Below are positions 2,352 to 18,776 of a stretch of 22,865 bases of DNA, one piece after another (within the stretch, counting starts at the first letter, position 1; each line of letters starts with the position of its first letter). The position numbers and the translations under genes were made by a program. The notes under the pieces were generated by a model. That model searched no databases and was not told the DNA's origin. It saw nothing but the letters and a program-made list of their open reading frames with translations. The stretch is from NCBI GenBank assembly GCA_021162685.1, contig JAGGYF010000030.1, positions 1 through 22,865 on the forward strand. Reading direction: 5' to 3'. The stretch comes from Candidatus Iainarchaeum sp. GTDB lineage: Archaea; B1Sed10-29; WALL01.

Positions 2352-4754
2352 GTGCCTAAGTATAATCCATTTGAGATAGAGAAAAAATGGCAAGATAAGT
2401 GGATAGAGGATGGCATATACAAATTTGACATAAATGCACCAGGAGAGGTATATGCCATCGATAACCCACCTAGTTTTACTTCTGGTACCCTACATATGGG
2501 TCATATCCTAAATCATTCATGGATTGATTTTATCGCCAGATACAAGAGGATGCGAGGGTACAATGTTTTATTCCCTTTGGGATACGATTGTCACGGTTTG
2601 CCAACAGAGCTACGTGTTGCAAAGGAGTATGGCATTCCAAAGGAGAACAGAAAGGAGTTCAGGGAGAAGTGTGAGGAATGGACAACACAAGCAATAAAGC
2701 GTATGAACGAACAATACAAGAGCATAGGGTATTCATGTGATTGGAATGAATACTATGAAACACGCATGCCAAAATACAAAAAGGCAGTCCAATATTCCCT
2801 AATAAAGTTTTTTGAGATGGGTCGCATATACAGAGAGAAACATCCAGTGCTTTGGTGTACAAAGTGTGGAACAGCATTGGCAAAGGCAGAGGTAGGTTAC
2901 AAAGAAGAAAAGGGCAAGTTATGGTATCTGAGGTTTCCAATTGTCGGCAAGGATAGGCATATAGAGATAGCAACAACAAGGCCAGAGTTGATGTTTGCCT
3001 GTGTTGCAGTATTTGTACACCCGGATGACGAGCGTTACTATGGGTTGGCAGGCTCAAAAGTACTTATCCCTTATGTTAATCGTGAAGTACCTATTCTTAC
3101 TGATGAGGAAGTAGATAGAGAGTTCGGAACCGGTGCTGTTTATCTTTGTACATTTGGAGATGAAATGGACATCAAATGGCAGAAGGAATATAATCTCCCG
3201 GTCTATGTTGCTATAGACAAAACAGGGAGGATGACTGAGCTCTGCGGAAAATACAAGGGCATGACAACAAAACAGTGCAGAGAGGAACTTTTGAAGGACC
3301 TAAAAAATGATGGCTATCTAGTGAAAGAAGAGGATTACATCCATAATGTTCTGGCGCATACTGAAAGAAGCGCATGTATGAACCCTGTGGAATTTTTACC
3401 AATGGAACAATGGTTCATAAAACTAAAAGATAAGTTAGATGATGTGATAGATGCGGCAAACCAGATGCAATGGTATCCTGCATATATGAAGCAGAGGCTT
3501 GTTGACTGGGCAACGAGCCTAGATTGGGACTGGATCATCTCCAGACAGAGAGTATATGGGACTCCAATACCCTTTTGGTACTGCGAGAAATGCGGAAAAA
3601 TCTATCCTGCAAGAGTAGACCAACTACCTGTTGATCCTTTAGTGGACAAACCGCCTGTGGAAAAATGTGAGTGCGGAAACCCATTAAAAGGAGCAGAGGA
3701 TACATGCGATTGCTGGGTTGACTCCTCTATAACTCCTCTGATGGTAGCTCATTGGCTTGAGGATGATGGATATTTTGAGAAGGCATATCCAAACTACCTG
3801 AGACCACAGGGATACGAGATTATAAGAACATGGGCATTTTACACAATATTTAGGGATTTATTGCTCACAGGTAAACCTCCTTTCAAGCATGTTGTGGTAA
3901 ACGGCATGGTTGCTGGGACAGATGGAAGAAAGATGGCAAAGAGCTTTGGTAACGTCATAGAGCCAGAGGAAGTAATCAGCAAGGAGGGAGCAGATGCAAT
4001 AAGGCAATGGGCATTGAACGCATCCCTTGGCGAGGACTATCCTTTTTCTTGGAAGGAGATAACACATGGTGCAAAGTTCCAAAAGAAATACTGGAATGCG
4101 TCATACTTCGCAAGCCAGTTCCTTAAAGACTACAAACCAGAAGAACCAGAACAACTCAGACCTGTTGATAGATGGATACTAAGCAAGCTAAACAAACTAA
4201 TAAAACATAGCACAGAAGTACTTGATAGATATGAGTTTGCAAAGGCATTGACACCCATAAGGGATTTCTTCTGGCATGATTTCTGCGATAACTACATTGA
4301 GATGGCAAAAGCGAGGTTATATAACGGGACAGAGGAGGAGAGGAAAGCAGCGCAGTATTGTTTATATGAAGTACTTCTGAAAACATCACTTATGTTAGCT
4401 CCATTTATCCCTCACATCACGGAAGAGATTCACGAGTTGTACTTAAAACAATTCACAAAATCCAAATCAATACATCTTATGAAGTGGCCAGAATACAATG
4501 AAAAGTTTTTCAATGATGAAATTGAATCAAAAGCAAATAAAGCGATTGCAGTCATCAGTGCAGTTAGGAAGTTTAAAAATGAAAACAAGATGCCACTCAA
4601 TGCAGAGATAACTAAACTGGTCATCTACGAGAAGCCAATCCAAGAATTTGAAAAAGATATACAAGAAACGGTGAAAGCGAAAACCATAGAGTTCTCTGAT
4701 GGCAAGGGAAATATTGAATGCGAACTAGACATAACAATAGACATAGAAAAGTGA
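2352..4754 (+). CDS. valS: Valine--tRNA ligase (archaeal type)
   Basis: GTG start after AGGTG; HMGH (HIGH-like), ATTRPEL editing-domain motif, DWIISRQR, KMAKS (KMSKS variant), DFCDNYIE anticodon-domain motif; 800 aa. Confidence 0.95.
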   Translation: MPKYNPFEIEKKWQDKWIEDGIYKFDINAPGEVYAIDNPPSFTSGTLHMGHILNHSWIDFIARYKRMRGYNVLFPLGYDCHGLPTELRVAKEYGIPKENRKEFREKCEEWTTQAIKRMNEQYKSIGYSCDWNEYYETRMPKYKKAVQYSLIKFFEMGRIYREKHPVLWCTKCGTALAKAEVGYKEEKGKLWYLRFPIVGKDRHIEIATTRPELMFACVAVFVHPDDERYYGLAGSKVLIPYVNREVPILTDEEVDREFGTGAVYLCTFGDEMDIKWQKEYNLPVYVAIDKTGRMTELCGKYKGMTTKQCREELLKDLKNDGYLVKEEDYIHNVLAHTERSACMNPVEFLPMEQWFIKLKDKLDDVIDAANQMQWYPAYMKQRLVDWATSLDWDWIISRQRVYGTPIPFWYCEKCGKIYPARVDQLPVDPLVDKPPVEKCECGNPLKGAEDTCDCWVDSSITPLMVAHWLEDDGYFEKAYPNYLRPQGYEIIRTWAFYTIFRDLLLTGKPPFKHVVVNGMVAGTDGRKMAKSFGNVIEPEEVISKEGADAIRQWALNASLGEDYPFSWKEITHGAKFQKKYWNASYFASQFLKDYKPEEPEQLRPVDRWILSKLNKLIKHSTEVLDRYEFAKALTPIRDFFWHDFCDNYIEMAKARLYNGTEEERKAAQYCLYEVLLKTSLMLAPFIPHITEEIHELYLKQFTKSKSIHLMKWPEYNEKFFNDEIESKANKAIAVISAVRKFKNENKMPLNAEITKLVIYEKPIQEFEKDIQETVKAKTIEFSDGKGNIECELDITIDIEK

Positions 4755-13410: not shown

Positions 13411-15171
13411 ATGAAGAGAATTTTGTTCATACTCCTACTCATATTATGCGCAACATTTGCAAAGGAAATCTTGATAACAAATGATGGTTTCTCATTAAGG
13501 AGATCACTATCATTTGGCTCTGACGGAAGGGCGCACATCATTTATTTTAATTCAACAAATGATCTAGTCTACAGATACAGTGACGACTTAGGACAAACAT
13601 GGAGCAATCCCGTATTGTTAAAGGACTACCCAACAGGAACTAGCTATCGATCTGTACGAGCAAATATCTGGGCTACAGAAAACTCAACAAACAAAATCAT
13701 TTATGTTGCCTATACAATGTATGACCCACCAAATCAATGCATATATTTCAAAAGGTCGTTTGATAATGGTGTAACATGGAGCTCAGAAGTAAATATAGCA
13801 CCAGCTTACTGCGGGTATTCAATGCTTCAATCTTCTATATGGGCAAATGCCTCAAATGTTTATGTATTTTTCAGTGTAAATTCCTCAATGCCCTACCTTA
13901 CAAAAAGCACAGACTATGGAACAACATGGTCAACTCCTGTGTATACGGGATCAAAAGGCGGCATAACCTATCAAGTACCAACATGGGTTGAGGAAGACAA
14001 AAACAAGATACATATTGTCCAGGAAGGAGCACATGGCCATGATGACAGAAATGTTTACTATTGCAATAGCACAGATGGAGGAGCAACCTTTAATTGTATT
14101 GCATTAAGAGATGTTAATGATGTAACTGGCTCAGATCATATATCTGTTTGGGGCAACAAGGTTCTTGTTGTCTATCAACACTCAAATAATGTTTATTATA
14201 GGTTAAGCATAGATGGAGGAGCAACATTTGGGTCAGACCAACCAGTAACCTCTTTAACGGCAGGTGAAGCAGATTCAACACCAGGAACATTTGACACATC
14301 AACAAACAATACATATGTATTCTATGTACAAAACACAACAGGGACATGGCAAGTACATGTGAAATTTTATAATGCTTCTTCAGATTCTATCCAATATGTT
14401 CCTGGCTATTCTGGAACAAACATCTCATTCTGGAATGAAGATTCGTGTCCTAAACCATCCCTTTTTCCATATAACAATAAAGTGTACTACTTATTATCAG
14501 TTGGAAGTTCTCATCCCTACAAGCTATATTTCGCATACCTTCCAGAGATACCTTCTATAGAGAACAGGACTGTTTCCTCCATAACAAATTCAAGTGCAGT
14601 AATCTCATGGGACACAGATGAATGGGCAAATGGAACCGTGTATTATTGGAGCTCTCCAGCGCAACAAGTAAACCACACCAACTTTAATTTAAGCCACCAA
14701 TTCACTCTTTCAAACCTTTCTCCACAAACTACATATCACTATAATATAACATCATGTAACTACAAAGGATGCGACACAACAGCAACATATTCATTCACAA
14801 CTCTGTTATGTAACCCCCCAGATACAGATTCAGATGGCGACGGATTATGTGATTCTACAGAAAACACATATGGATGGAATGCATCAGATCCTAACAACCC
14901 GCCAAATGGAGGATCTGGAGATGCTGACAACGACTTATTGACTAATCAAGAAGAACAAACATACGGAACAAATCTGACAAATCCAGATACGGACGGAGAT
15001 GGATTTGTAGATGGAGAAGAAGTAAATATATATAACACAAGTGCAACAGATGCAAACAGCAGGCCATCAATTCAGACATCAACAATAAAGGTTGCCCCCG
15101 CATTTGATATTACTGGGTTGATTATTCTTGTTGTAGGGAGTATAGCAGTTTTACTCTGGCTGTATCTTTAG
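13411..15171 (+). CDS. Cell-surface glycoprotein: BNR/Asp-box beta-propeller, FN3-like domain, Ca-binding (TSP3-like) repeats, C-terminal TM anchor
   Basis: Signal peptide; five S.D.G.T[WF] Asp boxes; ITNSSAVISWDTDE...LSNLSPQTTYHY FN3-like pattern; DTDSDGDGLCD and PDTDGDGFVDGEE; many N-x-S/T sequons; PAF followed by a hydrophobic C-terminus. Confidence 0.9.
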   Translation: MKRILFILLLILCATFAKEILITNDGFSLRRSLSFGSDGRAHIIYFNSTNDLVYRYSDDLGQTWSNPVLLKDYPTGTSYRSVRANIWATENSTNKIIYVAYTMYDPPNQCIYFKRSFDNGVTWSSEVNIAPAYCGYSMLQSSIWANASNVYVFFSVNSSMPYLTKSTDYGTTWSTPVYTGSKGGITYQVPTWVEEDKNKIHIVQEGAHGHDDRNVYYCNSTDGGATFNCIALRDVNDVTGSDHISVWGNKVLVVYQHSNNVYYRLSIDGGATFGSDQPVTSLTAGEADSTPGTFDTSTNNTYVFYVQNTTGTWQVHVKFYNASSDSIQYVPGYSGTNISFWNEDSCPKPSLFPYNNKVYYLLSVGSSHPYKLYFAYLPEIPSIENRTVSSITNSSAVISWDTDEWANGTVYYWSSPAQQVNHTNFNLSHQFTLSNLSPQTTYHYNITSCNYKGCDTTATYSFTTLLCNPPDTDSDGDGLCDSTENTYGWNASDPNNPPNGGSGDADNDLLTNQEEQTYGTNLTNPDTDGDGFVDGEEVNIYNTSATDANSRPSIQTSTIKVAPAFDITGLIILVVGSIAVLLWLYL

Positions 15172-15464
15172 TACTTCTCCTTTTGGAGTTCAAACGCCCT
15201 TTTTACAACCCTCATCATCCTACGGAATAACTCTTCGTTAACCCTATATGCCCTTTTGTTTCTGGGTATATCCATCTCTTTTCTTCGTCTGACCTGTTTT
15301 ATGACGCCCATATCCGTTAAAAGCGTTATGTGTTTTACACTTGGGTATATTCCAACATATGGAGTGCCTTGATCCAAGTTTTTCTCAATCTCGCTCAATG
15401 CAAGACAAGCGAATATTCTCCGCTCTTCATCAACGAGGAAATAAATTTTGGGACTTCTTCCCAC
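15168..15464 (-). CDS. Putative winged helix-turn-helix protein (5' end uncertain, possibly frameshifted from ATG 15508)
   Basis: LSEIEKNL...YPSVKHITLLTDMGVI...KRAYRVN resembles an ArsR-like wHTH; stop overlaps the convergent gene's stop. Confidence 0.55.
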   Translation of the reverse strand: MGRSPKIYFLVDEERRIFACLALSEIEKNLDQGTPYVGIYPSVKHITLLTDMGVIKQVRRRKEMDIPRNKRAYRVNEELFRRMMRVVKRAFELQKEKY

Positions 15465-15512
15465 CAGACAATTTTTTCCAGCCGCTTTTTTATATGTTCA
15501 ACTACCATGCTA

Positions 15513-15938
15513 TCACAAACTTAATCCATATAATAGAAAAGGGATCTGAGGCAATGTAACAATTGCAAGTGCTAACCATTTTGGTGCCTTCTCTCCTATG
15601 ACAAAGGGATACAAAGGCAATGCCTCATCTGCATCTTTTATGCGTTTACTCGGTATTATGTCTAAAACAAGATGGGCCACAACCCCTAGTGTGAAGAAAG
15701 GAATAAACACAGCTAGGAATGGAATTGTAGATGGCATTATCATAGCAACATACGATAATAGTGATGAGACTAATGGAGTATGCGTCAACCAACTCCTATG
15801 CCACTTGCTAATAATCTCGTCTATATCTGGAAAGATGTTTCCCAGTGCTACTGCATATGCTGCCAATGGGCTCCAAAAAACCCAGCAAACTATGCCAAAT
15901 ATCACCCCAGAGAGTATATGCCACTCCTCATCAGCCAT
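15513..15938 (-). CDS. Membrane-associated metal-dependent hydrolase, YdjM-like (141 aa)
   Basis: H near N-terminus, FPDID, WHRSWLTH, HLVLD motifs with TM segments. Start reassigned to ATG 15938 (MADEEWH) because the upstream 11 codons lie in the promoter/repeat. Confidence 0.85.
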   Translation of the reverse strand: MADEEWHILSGVIFGIVCWVFWSPLAAYAVALGNIFPDIDEIISKWHRSWLTHTPLVSSLLSYVAMIMPSTIPFLAVFIPFFTLGVVAHLVLDIIPSKRIKDADEALPLYPFVIGEKAPKWLALAIVTLPQIPFLLYGLSL

Positions 15939-15973
15939 GAATAATTTATGCAAAATGGGGTTTATAAGCATTT
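15937..15973. repeat. 37-bp perfect direct repeat, copy 1 (contains TATA box)
   Basis: ATGAATAATTTATGCAAAATGGGGTTTATAAGCATTT, identical to 16734-16770. Confidence 0.97.
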
Positions 15974-16499
15974 ATCTAGATCTGCCAAATTTTGAGGAAT
16001 ATTTCCTAACCCTTCTTCCCCTCTTCTTTTCTTCCGAGAATTTATCAACCCACATATATCCTAGGTCTAAAACAAGTTCTTGAGGAGTTCTTACCTTTAT
16101 CCCTTTTGGTGCCAGCTTTTTGATATGAAAATCCTTTTTGTTATATGTCACAATATAGTCTGCCTTAGACACCAATGCCAAAGCAACCACATGAGCATCG
16201 GACTTATCTTTAACGAACTTTACAACCTCATCTTTTTCTGTTTTCCCTCTTATGCGTATTACTTCAAGATGTTTTAATAATTCCTTCAAACCTTTCCTGA
16301 ATAGTGGGAAGGAGATACCTGCCTTTCTAGCTATTTCTACTTCGTGCTTTTTGATCTCTTCTTCTATAAGTTCTGAAATAACTAATCTCAGCCTATGATC
16401 AACTAATGGTAACAAGAGAAATCTGCGGCTAATCCCCTCCTCTTTTATCATGGCAGAAAGAATAATGTTTGTATCAACGACAGCTATAATCTTTTCCAT
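15972..16499 (-). CDS. PIN-domain putative toxin (VapC-like, PIN_3 type)
   Basis: VVDTNIILSA, conserved E, D..DAHVVALA, ADYIVTYNKKDF, TPQEL; overlaps the small upstream gene by 16 nt. Confidence 0.9.
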   Translation of the reverse strand: MEKIIAVVDTNIILSAMIKEEGISRRFLLLPLVDHRLRLVISELIEEEIKKHEVEIARKAGISFPLFRKGLKELLKHLEVIRIRGKTEKDEVVKFVKDKSDAHVVALALVSKADYIVTYNKKDFHIKKLAPKGIKVRTPQELVLDLGYMWVDKFSEEKKRGRRVRKYSSKFGRSR

Positions 16500-16687
16500 G
16501 CCTCTCTCCCAAGTTTCTTTGAGAGAACTAATGCTTTGCTTTTTGTCATTCTACTAAAAAGAAAAAGCATATCTAACTCTATACTCTTTTTTGCGAATTC
16601 TCTCAATTCGTTTACATCTATGTTCTTTGCTTTAGCTTCTTTTAGTATCTCTTCTGGTATTTCCACAGATATTGTTTTCTCTCGCAT
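16484..16687 (-). CDS. Putative antitoxin (67 aa)
   Basis: Small gene directly upstream of and overlapping the PIN gene; N-terminal TISVEIPEEI beta-strand/helix pattern like ribbon-helix-helix antitoxins. Start reassigned to ATG 16687 (MREK), about 24 nt after minus-strand TTTAATAA (16711-16718). Confidence 0.75.
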   Translation of the reverse strand: MREKTISVEIPEEILKEAKAKNIDVNELREFAKKSIELDMLFLFSRMTKSKALVLSKKLGREAWKRL

Positions 16688-16733
16688 AACTCTTATTTGG
16701 TCTCTTTCATTTATTAAACTATTTGTCTTACAA

Positions 16734-16770
16734 ATGAATAATTTATGCAAAATGGGGTTTATAAGCATTT
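16734..16770. repeat. 37-bp perfect direct repeat, copy 2
   Basis: Identical to 15937-15973; offset 797 bp; flanks diverge immediately on both sides. Confidence 0.97.
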
Positions 16771-16808
16771 GTTTTAAAAATCTCCATTTCCCTAATAAAT
16801 GCCCTGAG

Positions 16809-18776
16809 GTGATTTTTTTTAGGTATTTAGTCACTTCTGCACTGCCATATGTGAATTCAAGGCCGCACCTAGGCCACCTAATCGGTAGTTTACTCCCTCC
16901 TGATATCTATGTGAGGTTTCTTAGGTTGAGAGGAGAGGATGCTATCTATATATGTGGTACAGATGAACATGGAACCGCTACAGAGATCGCAGCAGAAAAG
17001 GCGGGTGTCACACCAGAGGAATGGTGTGCAAGAATGCACAAATTACATAAGGAGGATTACGAGTGGTTTGAGATAGAATTCACAAACTTTGGGAGAACTA
17101 GCAGTAAAAGTAATCACGAACTAACGCAATACATCTTCAAGAAGAACTATGAGAAAGGATACATATTTGAAAAGGAGACAGAGCAGTGGTACTGCAACAA
17201 ATGCAAACGTTTCCTTCCAGATAGGTATGTAAAAGCAACATGTCCATACTGTGGGGCAGAGACAAATGCAGACCAGTGTGACTCATGTGGGAAACTTTTA
17301 GAACCACACGAATTGATAGAACCAAGATGCGTGATCTGCGGTTCAAAACCAGAACTAAAACAATCAAAGCACTTATTTTTAGACCTTCCGAAATTTGCAC
17401 CAAAGCTCAAACAATGGATCTCCTCAAATAAACACTGGTCACAAAACGTAAGGAACTGGGCACTTTCATTATGTGATAACCTAAAGCCAAGATGTATAAC
17501 AAGGGATCTGAAATGGGGAGTGAAGGTTCCACTAAAAGGTTACGAAGATAAAGTATTCTATGTATGGTTTGATGCACCAATTGGGTATATAGCAATAACA
17601 AAGGACTGGAATGAAAAAGAATGGCACGATTGGTGGACATCAAAAGAAACCAGGTTAATACATTTCCTTGGGAAAGATAACATCCCGTTCCATACAATCA
17701 TATTCCCAGCAATGCTGATGGGAACAGAAGAATTTATTCTGCCTTATAACATAATCGCTGCAGAATATCTGAATTACGAAGGAAAGAAGTTCTCAAAAAG
17801 TAAAGGCATAGGTGTGACATTGGAGGATGCCAGAAACCTCCCATATCCTCCAGATTATTGGAGATATGCACTAGTGCAGATGGCACCTGAAACCCATGAC
17901 TCAGATTTTACATGGAAAGGATTCCAGAAAGCAATAGATGAACTTGCTGATGTACTTGGAAACTTTGTCCATAGGTCATTTATACTCACAAAGAAGTTTT
18001 TCAACTCAGAAGTGCCAAAACCAGAAGCATTTACAGATGCGGATAAAAAACTTATAGAGGAGATTGAAAAAGCTCCAGGATATGTTGCGGAGGAACTATC
18101 AAAGGGACACTTGAGAGAAGCGAGCAAGCGTGCAATGGAGTTGGTGAGAGAGGCAAATGCATATCTAAATCAGCAAGAGCCGTGGAAAAACGAAGGAGTG
18201 AGAGCAAATACATTATACCTATGTTTGAATGTGTGTAGGAGCGCCGCAATACTCTTTGAACCATTTATGCCTGCGTTTTCTTCACAGGTTTGGGCTTACT
18301 TGAACCTTGATGAGGATAAAAAATGGGAGGATGCTGGAAAGTTGTTATTAAAACCAGGACATAAAATAAATGAATCAAAACCAATATTCAAAAAGATTGG
18401 AGATGATGAGATAGAAAAGTGGGAAAAACAGTTTTCAGGAGAGAAGGAGGCGAAACCTATGATATCATATGATGAGTTCGCAAAACTTGATCTGAGAGTA
18501 GCACAAATAAAACATGTGGAAAAGGTAGAAGGTGCAGATAAACTTCTAAAGATTGTTTTGGACGTAGGGGAACTTGGAGAAAGAACAGTTGCAGCAGGCC
18601 TTGCACCATACTATAAGCCAGAGGAACTTGTAGGAAAGAATGTTGTTTACCTGGCAAACCTTCAGCCGAGAAAACTCAGAGGGGTTTTGAGCCAGGGCAT
18701 GATCCTTGCAGGAGAAAAGGACAACAAAGTTAAATTATTGGAGTGTGACCTAGAGCCAGGTGCAAAGGTGCTCTAA
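16809..18776 (+). CDS. metG: Methionine--tRNA ligase with C-terminal tRNA-binding (Trbp111-like) domain
   Basis: RYLVTSALPYVN, HLGH, GTDEHG, four CxxC zinc-knuckle pairs, YVWFDA, GKDNIPFH, KFSKS, C-terminal LDLRV...NL.PRKLRG..SQGMIL. Start set at the nearest in-frame GTG (16809); exact start uncertain. Confidence 0.95.
   Translation: MIFFRYLVTSALPYVNSRPHLGHLIGSLLPPDIYVRFLRLRGEDAIYICGTDEHGTATEIAAEKAGVTPEEWCARMHKLHKEDYEWFEIEFTNFGRTSSKSNHELTQYIFKKNYEKGYIFEKETEQWYCNKCKRFLPDRYVKATCPYCGAETNADQCDSCGKLLEPHELIEPRCVICGSKPELKQSKHLFLDLPKFAPKLKQWISSNKHWSQNVRNWALSLCDNLKPRCITRDLKWGVKVPLKGYEDKVFYVWFDAPIGYIAITKDWNEKEWHDWWTSKETRLIHFLGKDNIPFHTIIFPAMLMGTEEFILPYNIIAAEYLNYEGKKFSKSKGIGVTLEDARNLPYPPDYWRYALVQMAPETHDSDFTWKGFQKAIDELADVLGNFVHRSFILTKKFFNSEVPKPEAFTDADKKLIEEIEKAPGYVAEELSKGHLREASKRAMELVREANAYLNQQEPWKNEGVRANTLYLCLNVCRSAAILFEPFMPAFSSQVWAYLNLDEDKKWEDAGKLLLKPGHKINESKPIFKKIGDDEIEKWEKQFSGEKEAKPMISYDEFAKLDLRVAQIKHVEKVEGADKLLKIVLDVGELGERTVAAGLAPYYKPEELVGKNVVYLANLQPRKLRGVLSQGMILAGEKDNKVKLLECDLEPGAKVL

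Follow-up and report, generated by a model that had tools for sequence, protein, structure and literature searches.

A predicted toxin-antitoxin operon bracketed by 37-bp direct repeats that appear to duplicate a host promoter in a DPANN archaeon

We analyzed a 22,865-nt stretch of DNA from Candidatus Iainarchaeum sp. (the window, which is the entire contig JAGGYF010000030.1, here C41) and found a predicted toxin-antitoxin (TA) operon lying between a membrane hydrolase gene and metG, the gene for methionyl-tRNA synthetase, with a perfect 37-bp direct repeat on either side of it. The host is a hydrothermal-vent archaeon of the DPANN group (Nanobdellati-type), known from a 1.1-Mb metagenome-assembled genome (MAG; GCA_021162685.1, here G000) of 1,113,673 bases in 45 contigs that is 98.4% complete. 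With slightly more confidence than doubt, we read the locus as the duplicative insertion of an acquired type II TA operon, in which the repeats are a 37-bp target duplication and not an att site. The comparisons described below support an insertion and a duplication of promoter DNA, and the mechanism of the insertion is one that we infer.

The repeat, the operon and the host promoters

The sequence ATGAATAATTTATGCAAAATGGGGTTTATAAGCATTT was present twice in the window, in 100% identical copies with a spacing of 797 nt that bracket 760 bp (Table 1). With up to 3 mismatches allowed, the 37-mer matched 2 sites in the window and none in each of 100 dinucleotide shuffles, and a search of the whole 1.11-Mb genome for further copies returned these 2 and no third. 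The 37-bp repeat is real and not a chance match. Copy 1 includes two bases of the hydrolase start codon (CAT at 15936-15938), the sequence TTATAAA on the minus strand (15961-15967) at -29 to -23 from that start, and two bases of the stop codon of the PIN-domain gene (15972-15974). The 37-mer folded no better than shuffled sequences (z of +0.55 and +0.44), and it was absent from every other locus retrieved for comparison. A sequence-only reading that preceded this analysis had reported the perfect repeats, the codon bases and the hydrolase TATA box supplied by copy 1, and an interval holding only a PIN toxin, its putative antitoxin and a TATA box. These observations were borne out, the last of them by the open reading frames (ORFs), the Pfam matches and the sequence.

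The predicted toxin is a VapC-like protein that matched PIN_3 with an E-value of 1.3e-14 (55.4 bits against a cut-off of 27) and TIGR00305 with 38.7 bits against 29.15, and it ends in a basic C-terminal tail of ~25 residues. The product of the smaller gene, the putative antitoxin, had no match in Pfam or NCBIfam. Of 1.84 billion representatives, its profile drew 20 at E<=1e-3 and 3 at E<=1e-10, and this putative antitoxin family is undescribed. The smaller gene was found upstream of the PIN gene and co-oriented with it in 5/5 loci. When the two proteins were modeled as a complex, the interaction prediction score from aligned errors (ipSAE) was 0.89, the best of 3 controls reaching 0.11; the mark used for this score is reached by 116/157 solved complexes and by 2/215 mismatched pairs. 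The prediction was made with our own 5-row alignments, the runs agreed in at least 82% of the contacts, and the pLDDT (predicted local distance difference test) of the partner was at least 79. In the model, the C-terminal half of the antitoxin lies over the acidic pocket of the PIN protein, including residues 9-11, 98-103 and 119-120. The predicted complex supports binding of the antitoxin to the PIN protein, although the score may partly reflect a likeness to solved VapBC complexes.

The PIN gene was found in 4 of the 31 genomes of the phylum (G000, G011, G012 and G014, which belong to four different families) and in 0/5 genomes of the same family. The GC content of the cassette was 34.9% as compared to 39.7+-2.5% for 760-nt windows genome-wide, of which 2.1% were equally low. 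Since the pair is patchy among the phylum genomes and AT-rich for its host genome, it looks like an acquired, self-contained operon. The claim that it forms a minimal TA cassette devoid of a mobility enzyme also held, as we detected no recombinase-type ORF in the 760-bp insert. Each of the cassettes whose sequence extends beyond the antitoxin start, namely the four of the window, G011, G012 and G014, has a TATA-like box ~23-32 nt before that start, and because the box stands at a like distance in all four, the cassette appears to bring its own promoter and not to be a retro-copy. Retro-insertion was rejected, as a search for reverse transcriptase (RVT_1) gave no match in G000 and the cassette retains its TATA-like box at -31 to -23. 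We also noted a 7-nt inverted repeat, TTCATTT...AAATGAA (16706-16738), that flanks the cassette TATA-like box and spans the junction between cassette and repeat. It is a possible operator for the antitoxin.

The origin of the 37-mer was indicated by comparison with the genomes of the same family. Homologs of the hydrolase gene were found in 4/5 of these genomes and in 0/25 other genomes of the phylum, and the gene is family-specific within this set. In one of the family genomes (G003), hydrolase and metG are divergent neighbors and the TA pair is missing. The DNA upstream of the G003 hydrolase gene aligned with the 37-mer at 26/35 positions, ungapped and in the same register to the start codon (-36 to -1 in the hydrolase orientation). 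The alignment score was 34 as compared to 16.9+-2.6 for shuffles, and was reached by 0/300 of them. This supports the 37-mer as the native core promoter of the hydrolase gene, in which case copy 2 would be duplicated host DNA. The sequence-only reading had likewise proposed that the repeat duplicates a host promoter, which the G003 alignment bears out, and that the pair entered between pre-existing neighbors with no damage to either, which finds support in the divergent G003 genes. In G002 and G005 we could see by eye a TTTATAAAG...GCATAATTATTG...ATGG pattern (TATA...GCATAA(A)TTATT...ATGG) with scores of 24 and 20 that were not significant; hydrolase and metG lie apart in these two genomes. 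In G006 and G011, metG faces an MCM-like gene, as judged from its N-terminal sequence. The spacer between the divergent G003 genes has a possible 95-aa ORF (L007, G003:C21, 2884-3171) with its own TATA-like box and no Pfam family, and this spacer may have received a different small gene.

Judging from the promoter elements, the insert sits exactly between two divergent core promoters, and both genes appear to retain their own. The position of the hydrolase TATA box fits what is generally known of archaeal promoters, and the hydrolase mRNA is therefore probably leaderless. We placed the metG start at the GTG at 16809 because DNA homology with the metG genes of relatives starts at 16806-16807 of the window. 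metG could also be read in frame from the ATG that opens copy 2, as no stop intervenes, and this would add 25 residues (16734-16808). This ATG is probably unused as a start, since the homology to metG of relatives begins only at 16806.

Contigs from public sequencing runs gave independent views of the two junctions. Five runs, all labelled hydrothermal vent metagenome and none of them listed as RNA, covered part of the window, and contigs of 4 of them were placed on the locus. The left junction was crossed by a contig of run X1 (15743-16128) and one of run X2 (15783-16038), with 0 differences each, and the right junction by a contig of run X4 (16603-16809), with 1 difference. The run contigs have ~4x depth with holes over parts of the locus, and they possibly derive from the source samples. 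Logan contigs are built with a word size of 31, which is shorter than the 37-bp repeat, and so the contigs do not by themselves distinguish an integrated cassette from a combination of a circle and an empty site. They show that each junction sequence exists and leave the linkage across the repeat unproven. Excision joints, alternative junctions and an empty-site form were not seen among the ~4x contigs of the 4 runs, which is not evidence of absence. We took the structure as real, with a small reserve, because imperfect repeats of a like kind elsewhere cannot be graph artefacts.

Table 1. Coordinates of the features of the locus and of other genes bracketed by repeats. Positions are those of the window unless a genome and contig are named.
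Feature	Location	Strand	Basis or remark
YdjM-like membrane hydrolase gene, 141 aa	15516..15938	-	Pfam YdjM, E 5.8e-7, 29.6 bits vs cut-off 29
Direct repeat copy 1	15937..15973	.	Probable native core promoter of the hydrolase gene; sequence, shuffles, G003 alignment
PIN-domain toxin gene (predicted), VapC-like, 175 aa	15972..16499 (stop 15972-15974)	-	Pfam PIN_3, PIN_2, TIGR00305
Putative antitoxin gene, 67 aa	16484..16687 (stop 16484-16486)	-	16-nt overlap with toxin start
Cassette leader, 46 nt, with TATA-like TTTAATAAA at 16710-16718	16688..16733	-	Box 23-31 nt before antitoxin ATG
Direct repeat copy 2	16734..16770	.	Apparent spare hydrolase promoter, now directed into the cassette
Candidate metG TATA box, TTTTAAAAA	16772..16780	+	Read from sequence; 29-37 nt before GTG, directly outside copy 2
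metG, methionyl-tRNA synthetase, GTG start	16809..18776	+	tRNA-synt_1g, E 3.9e-156
Two AAA_14 ATPase genes, one with DUF4143	G000		Repeats 55/57 and 48/48
Unknown 397-aa gene	G000:C18		45-nt repeat with two 1-nt gaps; one copy inside a GAD-domain ORF
Asp/Glu racemase-like gene	G000:C31:16288-17196		33/35 repeat, unstructured
ATPase_2/DUF234 gene	G000:C39:1372-2915		25/26 repeat, unstructured
Bracketed AAA_14 loci	G000:C18:7747-11761 (L109); in relatives L131, L135, L138, L139, L147		

Related cassettes and other bracketed genes

We searched for the TA pair in other contexts, as the sequence-only reading had suggested. The pair was found in G011, G012, G014 and a metagenome locus (L027), and the 37-mer was not with it at any of these. 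A word-based search gave 3 relatives of the PIN protein with identities of 54-59%, and close homologs overall were 46-59% identical. A metagenome scan with the PIN protein alone gave no match, and a scan with an alignment gave 79 loci that included one close relative (L027, 55%). Scanning of genome contigs for cassette relatives gave 15 loci, 2 of them close, and scanning of viral contigs gave no loci.

The pair in G011 (L009; 54% identity) is also bracketed by a repeat. This repeat is imperfect and ~56 nt long (3394-3459 versus 4230-4285), with a 24/25 core, a 15/19 block and a 9-nt length difference, and its local score was 46 as compared to 21+-2.4. It is unrelated in sequence to the 37-mer of the window. 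Nucleotide homology between G011 and G012 extends over 617/758 positions (L009 4236 to 3481) and fits the interval between the G011 repeats within 6 nt and ~20 nt. Since the homology fits the interval and the upstream flanks are not significantly alike, we took the bracketed interval to be the unit common to G011 and G012. An upstream context common to the two genomes had been considered and was dropped, because its score was reached by 155/1000 shuffles. Bracketing repeats thus recur, and as a class they are no product of faulty assembly.

The G011 contig (C54) also carries a cassette array (L009 3394-7267), in which a 21-nt core, TTAACTCTCTCTAGAAGGCTT, occurs four times with one additional diverged copy. 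The PIN pair, an AAA_14/DUF4143 ATPase, RelE-like ORFs and a methylase-like ORF are set apart by these core copies, which delimit at least 4 cassettes; the RelE-like and methylase-like ORFs were named from sequence motifs. One pair of copies matches at 87/92 positions. The array repeats were unfolded, and an integrase (PF00589) was not found in the G011 genome. The array could reflect serial duplicative insertions at one spot, or it could be another kind of cassette array.

We then scanned the flanks of the 831 G000 ORFs that are 150 aa or longer. Local scores averaged 20.2 (sd 6.7) and were 40 or higher for 7 of the ORFs, one being a tandem paralog and another a tRNA pair. The other five are single genes or operons with isolated repeats on both sides, and so is the window cassette, for which a separate scoring gave 74. 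AAA_14 ATPase genes bracketed by direct repeats of 37-61 nt accounted for 2/10 in G000 and 7/15 in relatives, with one more weak case; those in relatives were in G006, G011 and G014, and the single copy in G012 had no repeats. Folding of the ATPase repeats indicated that 4/5 are long imperfect palindromes (z from -4.5 to -6.9). Most of these repeats begin 2-6 nt past the stop codon or overlap the gene end, and finish 0-34 nt before the start, with gaps of 63-114 nt in 3 of the 10 tabulated units. In G007, an ATPase gene whose product is 59.7% identical and which lies in another neighborhood has one of these repeats at both ends, with 95-97% conservation. Because the repeats are palindromic and conserved at the gene ends across genomes, they travel with the gene, and gene and repeats together may represent a mobile element of one gene. 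The PD-(D/E)XK nuclease families include DUF4143 and DUF234, according to the excerpt of the source used here (PMC3424549). We dropped the idea of a single mechanism for all bracketed genes, since the ATPase repeats are palindromic and gene-borne whereas the 37-mer is host-derived and unstructured. Outer short target duplications beyond the repeats were likewise rejected, as they were absent in 14/15 bracketed units; a unit designated C18-A alone has one (19 nt).

Some further observations were made on the repeats of G000. A 45-nt piece from within the GAD-domain ORF was copied 1.5 kb away with two 1-nt deletions (G000:C18:11992-12036 and 13558-13600). The degenerate copy, which lies beyond the 397-aa gene, looks like a templated filler copy. 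The C18-A repeat pair is in the order Y-X...X-Y, and this order and the 45-nt copy together hint at template-type events in G000. At least 12 AAA_14 ATPase paralogs were present in G000 and several of them were at contig ends (C12, C25, C33 and C43), as would be expected if the assembly breaks at repeated or strain-variable regions. Another contig end (G000:C26:13-460, L112) carries an array resembling clustered regularly interspaced short palindromic repeats (CRISPR), with a 37-nt repeat, GTTCAAGAAACAGCCTTTATGGAGAAAGAACTGTAAC, and a period of 73-75. A CRISPR/Cas1 ruler as the source of the 37-nt length was considered and rejected, because Cas1 had no match in G000, the two sequences are unrelated, and other bracketing repeats are 26-57 nt long.

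The proposed insertion and its alternatives

We propose that the TA operon, consisting of a PIN/VapC-like toxin, a small antitoxin and its own TATA box, was acquired horizontally and inserted between the hydrolase and metG promoters. The 37 bp of host DNA duplicated by the insertion would be the core promoter of the hydrolase gene (positions of about -35 to +2). This gene would retain a full promoter in copy 1, and metG would retain its own beyond copy 2. Because a host-derived duplication flanks foreign DNA, it would by definition be a target-site duplication, and one of unusual length. The 760-bp fragment may have entered by capture between single-strand breaks that lay 37 nt from each other, with subsequent filling of the gaps, or replicative template switching may have copied it into the site. 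By either route, no cassette-encoded enzyme would be involved. Addiction to the TA pair would be expected to select against its loss via recombination between the perfect repeats.

Several points weigh against this proposal. To our knowledge, no prokaryotic mechanism has been documented for a 37-bp duplication with a 760-bp insert. The recombinase searches of the genome covered just three families, which did not include serine recombinases or further kinds of transposase. G003 is just family-level kin, with a hydrolase identity of 35%, and its spacer between hydrolase and metG is ~380 nt long and has the possible small ORF mentioned above. The G011 repeat, with at least 5 copies on its contig, may not be a simple target duplication. 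The repeat at the G014 cassette is weak (17/20); its score was reached by 0/1000 shuffles, yet 3/133 sliding windows with the same spacing reached it. No repeat was found at the G012 cassette, which has only 93 nt of upstream sequence, and the L027 contig terminates inside the antitoxin gene, so that a bracketing repeat could not be assessed. The five loci together gave one perfect repeat, one strong, one weak, one negative with limited sequence and one that was not evaluable. An empty-site allele, a 797-bp circle or an excision joint was not seen, as judged from the ~4x contigs and with no same-genus genome compared; the metG genes of the closest relatives compared are 66-72% identical. Finally, the MAG is split into 45 contigs.

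The sequence-only reading had explained the same structure by site-specific integration, with the 37-mers as attL and attR of a small circular non-autonomous TA element, a recombinase encoded elsewhere and precise excision possible. The repeat is perfect, its length is typical of archaeal att sites (the excerpt of PMC4158269 used here describes 55-nt repeats in Archaeoglobus veneficus), and the cassette has no enzyme of its own. A recombinase could have been missed in a MAG of 45 contigs, and motif-separated cassette arrays do exist in G011. On the other hand, the 37-mer is in register with the native G003 hydrolase promoter, and integration at such a site would need an identical attP on the element. 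Further against it, the 37-mer is unstructured and has no third genome copy, the repeats at homologous cassettes are unrelated in sequence, and we found no tRNA gene in the window to serve as a target. The check for tyrosine recombinases (PF00589) that had accompanied the att proposal was run and gave matches in 0/6 genomes (G000 and the relatives G006, G007, G011, G012 and G014), with no Xer-type enzyme and 14/14 controls positive, serine recombinases not being searched. This absence may be a real loss in the lineage or a divergence past the model. The run contigs showed no joints, which is weak evidence. Our searches thus turned up nothing in favor of an att site; the att and precise-excision reading is neither supported nor refuted, and we regard it as unlikely. 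Searches for other signs of mobility were also negative, with no Rfam match in 15000-17500 and no terminal inverted repeats that pair the cassette ends.

The remaining explanations differ in where they place the origin of the repeat. A Campbell-type event, in which a circle of cassette plus 37-mer from a sibling genome recombined with the hydrolase promoter and the repeat records spread within the population, would account for the perfect identity of the two copies and for their host sequence, and repeat-bracketed units would be expected to yield such circles by recombination. It leaves the first repeat-cassette-repeat unit unexplained, 37 bp is, from general knowledge, short for RadA-type recombination, and neither a circle nor a polymorphism was seen among the ~4x run contigs; we consider it quite improbable. 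An integron-like cassette from a cluster of attC sites lacking an integron-integrase (CALIN), with the repeats as attC-type sites, is a highly improbable source. Archaeal integrons are mostly integrase-less arrays, including those of Nanoarchaeota, and TA is the commonest annotated cassette function at 10.5%, according to the excerpt used here (PMC9668308). The G011:C54 array, with its repeat-cassette-repeat order and its TA, ATPase and methylase genes, resembles such a cluster. However, no attC core pair (RYYYAAC...GTTRRRY) turned up in a regular-expression search of both strands out to 35 nt from each copy, neither the 37-mer nor the G011 repeats fold (z of +0.4 to +1.35 and -0.16), and no IntI-type recombinase was found in the 6 genomes. 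Moreover, the cassette brings a promoter of its own, there are just two repeat copies in the window, and the 37-mer matches a host promoter. The structure might also not be an insertion at all, if a mis-join occurred through the 37-bp repeat or if an ancestral pair underwent a local duplication of the promoter. The MAG comes from low-coverage samples, the words of the Logan contigs do not resolve the linkage, and there was no closer relative for comparison. This too is very unlikely in our view, since both junctions are bridged by contigs of different runs that show 0 to 1 differences, similar imperfect repeats in G000 (55/57, 33/35 and 25/26) and in G011 are impossible as graph artefacts, and the pair was found in 0/5 genomes of the family and is atypical in composition. 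Each of these four alternatives lacks support.

Duplicative insertion therefore remains the reading that we favor for the window. A literature search, from which supplementary files were excluded, found no account of archaeal TA or DUF4143 cassettes that have long direct repeats. One may speculate, tentatively and with considerable doubt, that these DPANN archaea have a form of cassette insertion that requires no classical recombinase, duplicates tens of bases of target (26-92 nt in the cases seen) and by repeated hits at one spot builds integron-like arrays such as that of G011:C54, with the abundant AAA_14/DUF4143 genes (coding for an ATPase fused to a predicted PD-(D/E)XK nuclease) and their cognate palindromic repeats being autonomous and minimal TA operons being moved in trans.

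Significance and comparison with known systems

Mobile TA cassettes are already known, including those in archaeal integron arrays (PMC9668308, as excerpted). What is unusual here is a perfect 37-bp duplication of an apparent host promoter, between divergent promoters beside metG, with no recombinase detected. TA pairs hop between genomes and the entry of a bare two-gene operon is rarely visible, whereas the scar in the window is fresh and readable and adjoins an essential gene. If the long duplication were the mark of a general insertion route, this would account for the gain of defense and addiction genes by tiny symbiotic archaea whose repair and mobile-element toolkits are minimal, and repeat-separated cassette arrays could arise in the absence of integron machinery. 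The locus also offers a clean test of whether an addiction module guards itself against repeat-mediated deletion.

The pair resembles VapBC-type operons in its PIN_3/TIGR00305 toxin, in the small upstream gene that overlaps the toxin start by 16 nt, and in the predicted complex, where the C-terminal half of the antitoxin would cover the PIN acidic pocket. It differs from them in that the antitoxin is outside the Pfam and NCBIfam families and belongs to a tiny family, and in that the toxin has a basic C-terminal tail of ~25 aa; the roles of toxin and antitoxin in the window are predicted. Integron cassettes and CALIN, including the archaeal ones (Ghaly et al. 2022, PMC9668308, as excerpted), are similar in being minimal units devoid of a recombinase, in their TA content and in their repeat-cassette-repeat order. 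Unlike these, the window has no attC motifs or hairpin, no integrase was found, the cassette has its own promoter, and the repeat corresponds to a host promoter.

Integrated archaeal plasmids and viruses of the SSV (Sulfolobus spindle-shaped virus) type are also bordered by perfect direct repeats that are tens of bases long, such as the 55-nt pair in A. veneficus (PMC4158269, as excerpted). These elements span kilobases, encode an integrase and target tRNA genes, whereas the insert in the window is a 760-bp two-gene unit for which no integrase or tRNA was found. The target-site duplications of transposons and casposons, as well as spacer insertion into CRISPR arrays, share with the window the duplication of host sequence on both sides of inserted DNA, and serial insertion at one spot would give repeat-separated arrays. 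Casposase depends on terminal inverted repeats and gives duplications of 15 bp, according to the excerpt used here (PMC9939771). The window differs from a casposon in its 37-bp duplication, in having no inverted repeats and in that no Cas1 was found. The CRISPR-like repeat of G000 also has 37 nt, but its sequence bears no relation to the 37-mer, and the lengths of the remaining bracketing repeats in this genome range from 26 to 57 nt.

Insertions by template switching, of the type described as fork stalling and template switching (FoSTeS) or microhomology-mediated break-induced replication (MMBIR) in the eukaryotic and bacterial literature, leave a local duplication that flanks the insert and need no recombinase. 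The acquisition of genes by archaea through this route is not documented as far as the literature was searched. Similar to such events, G000 has templated filler copies and complex repeat orders near its bracketed genes.

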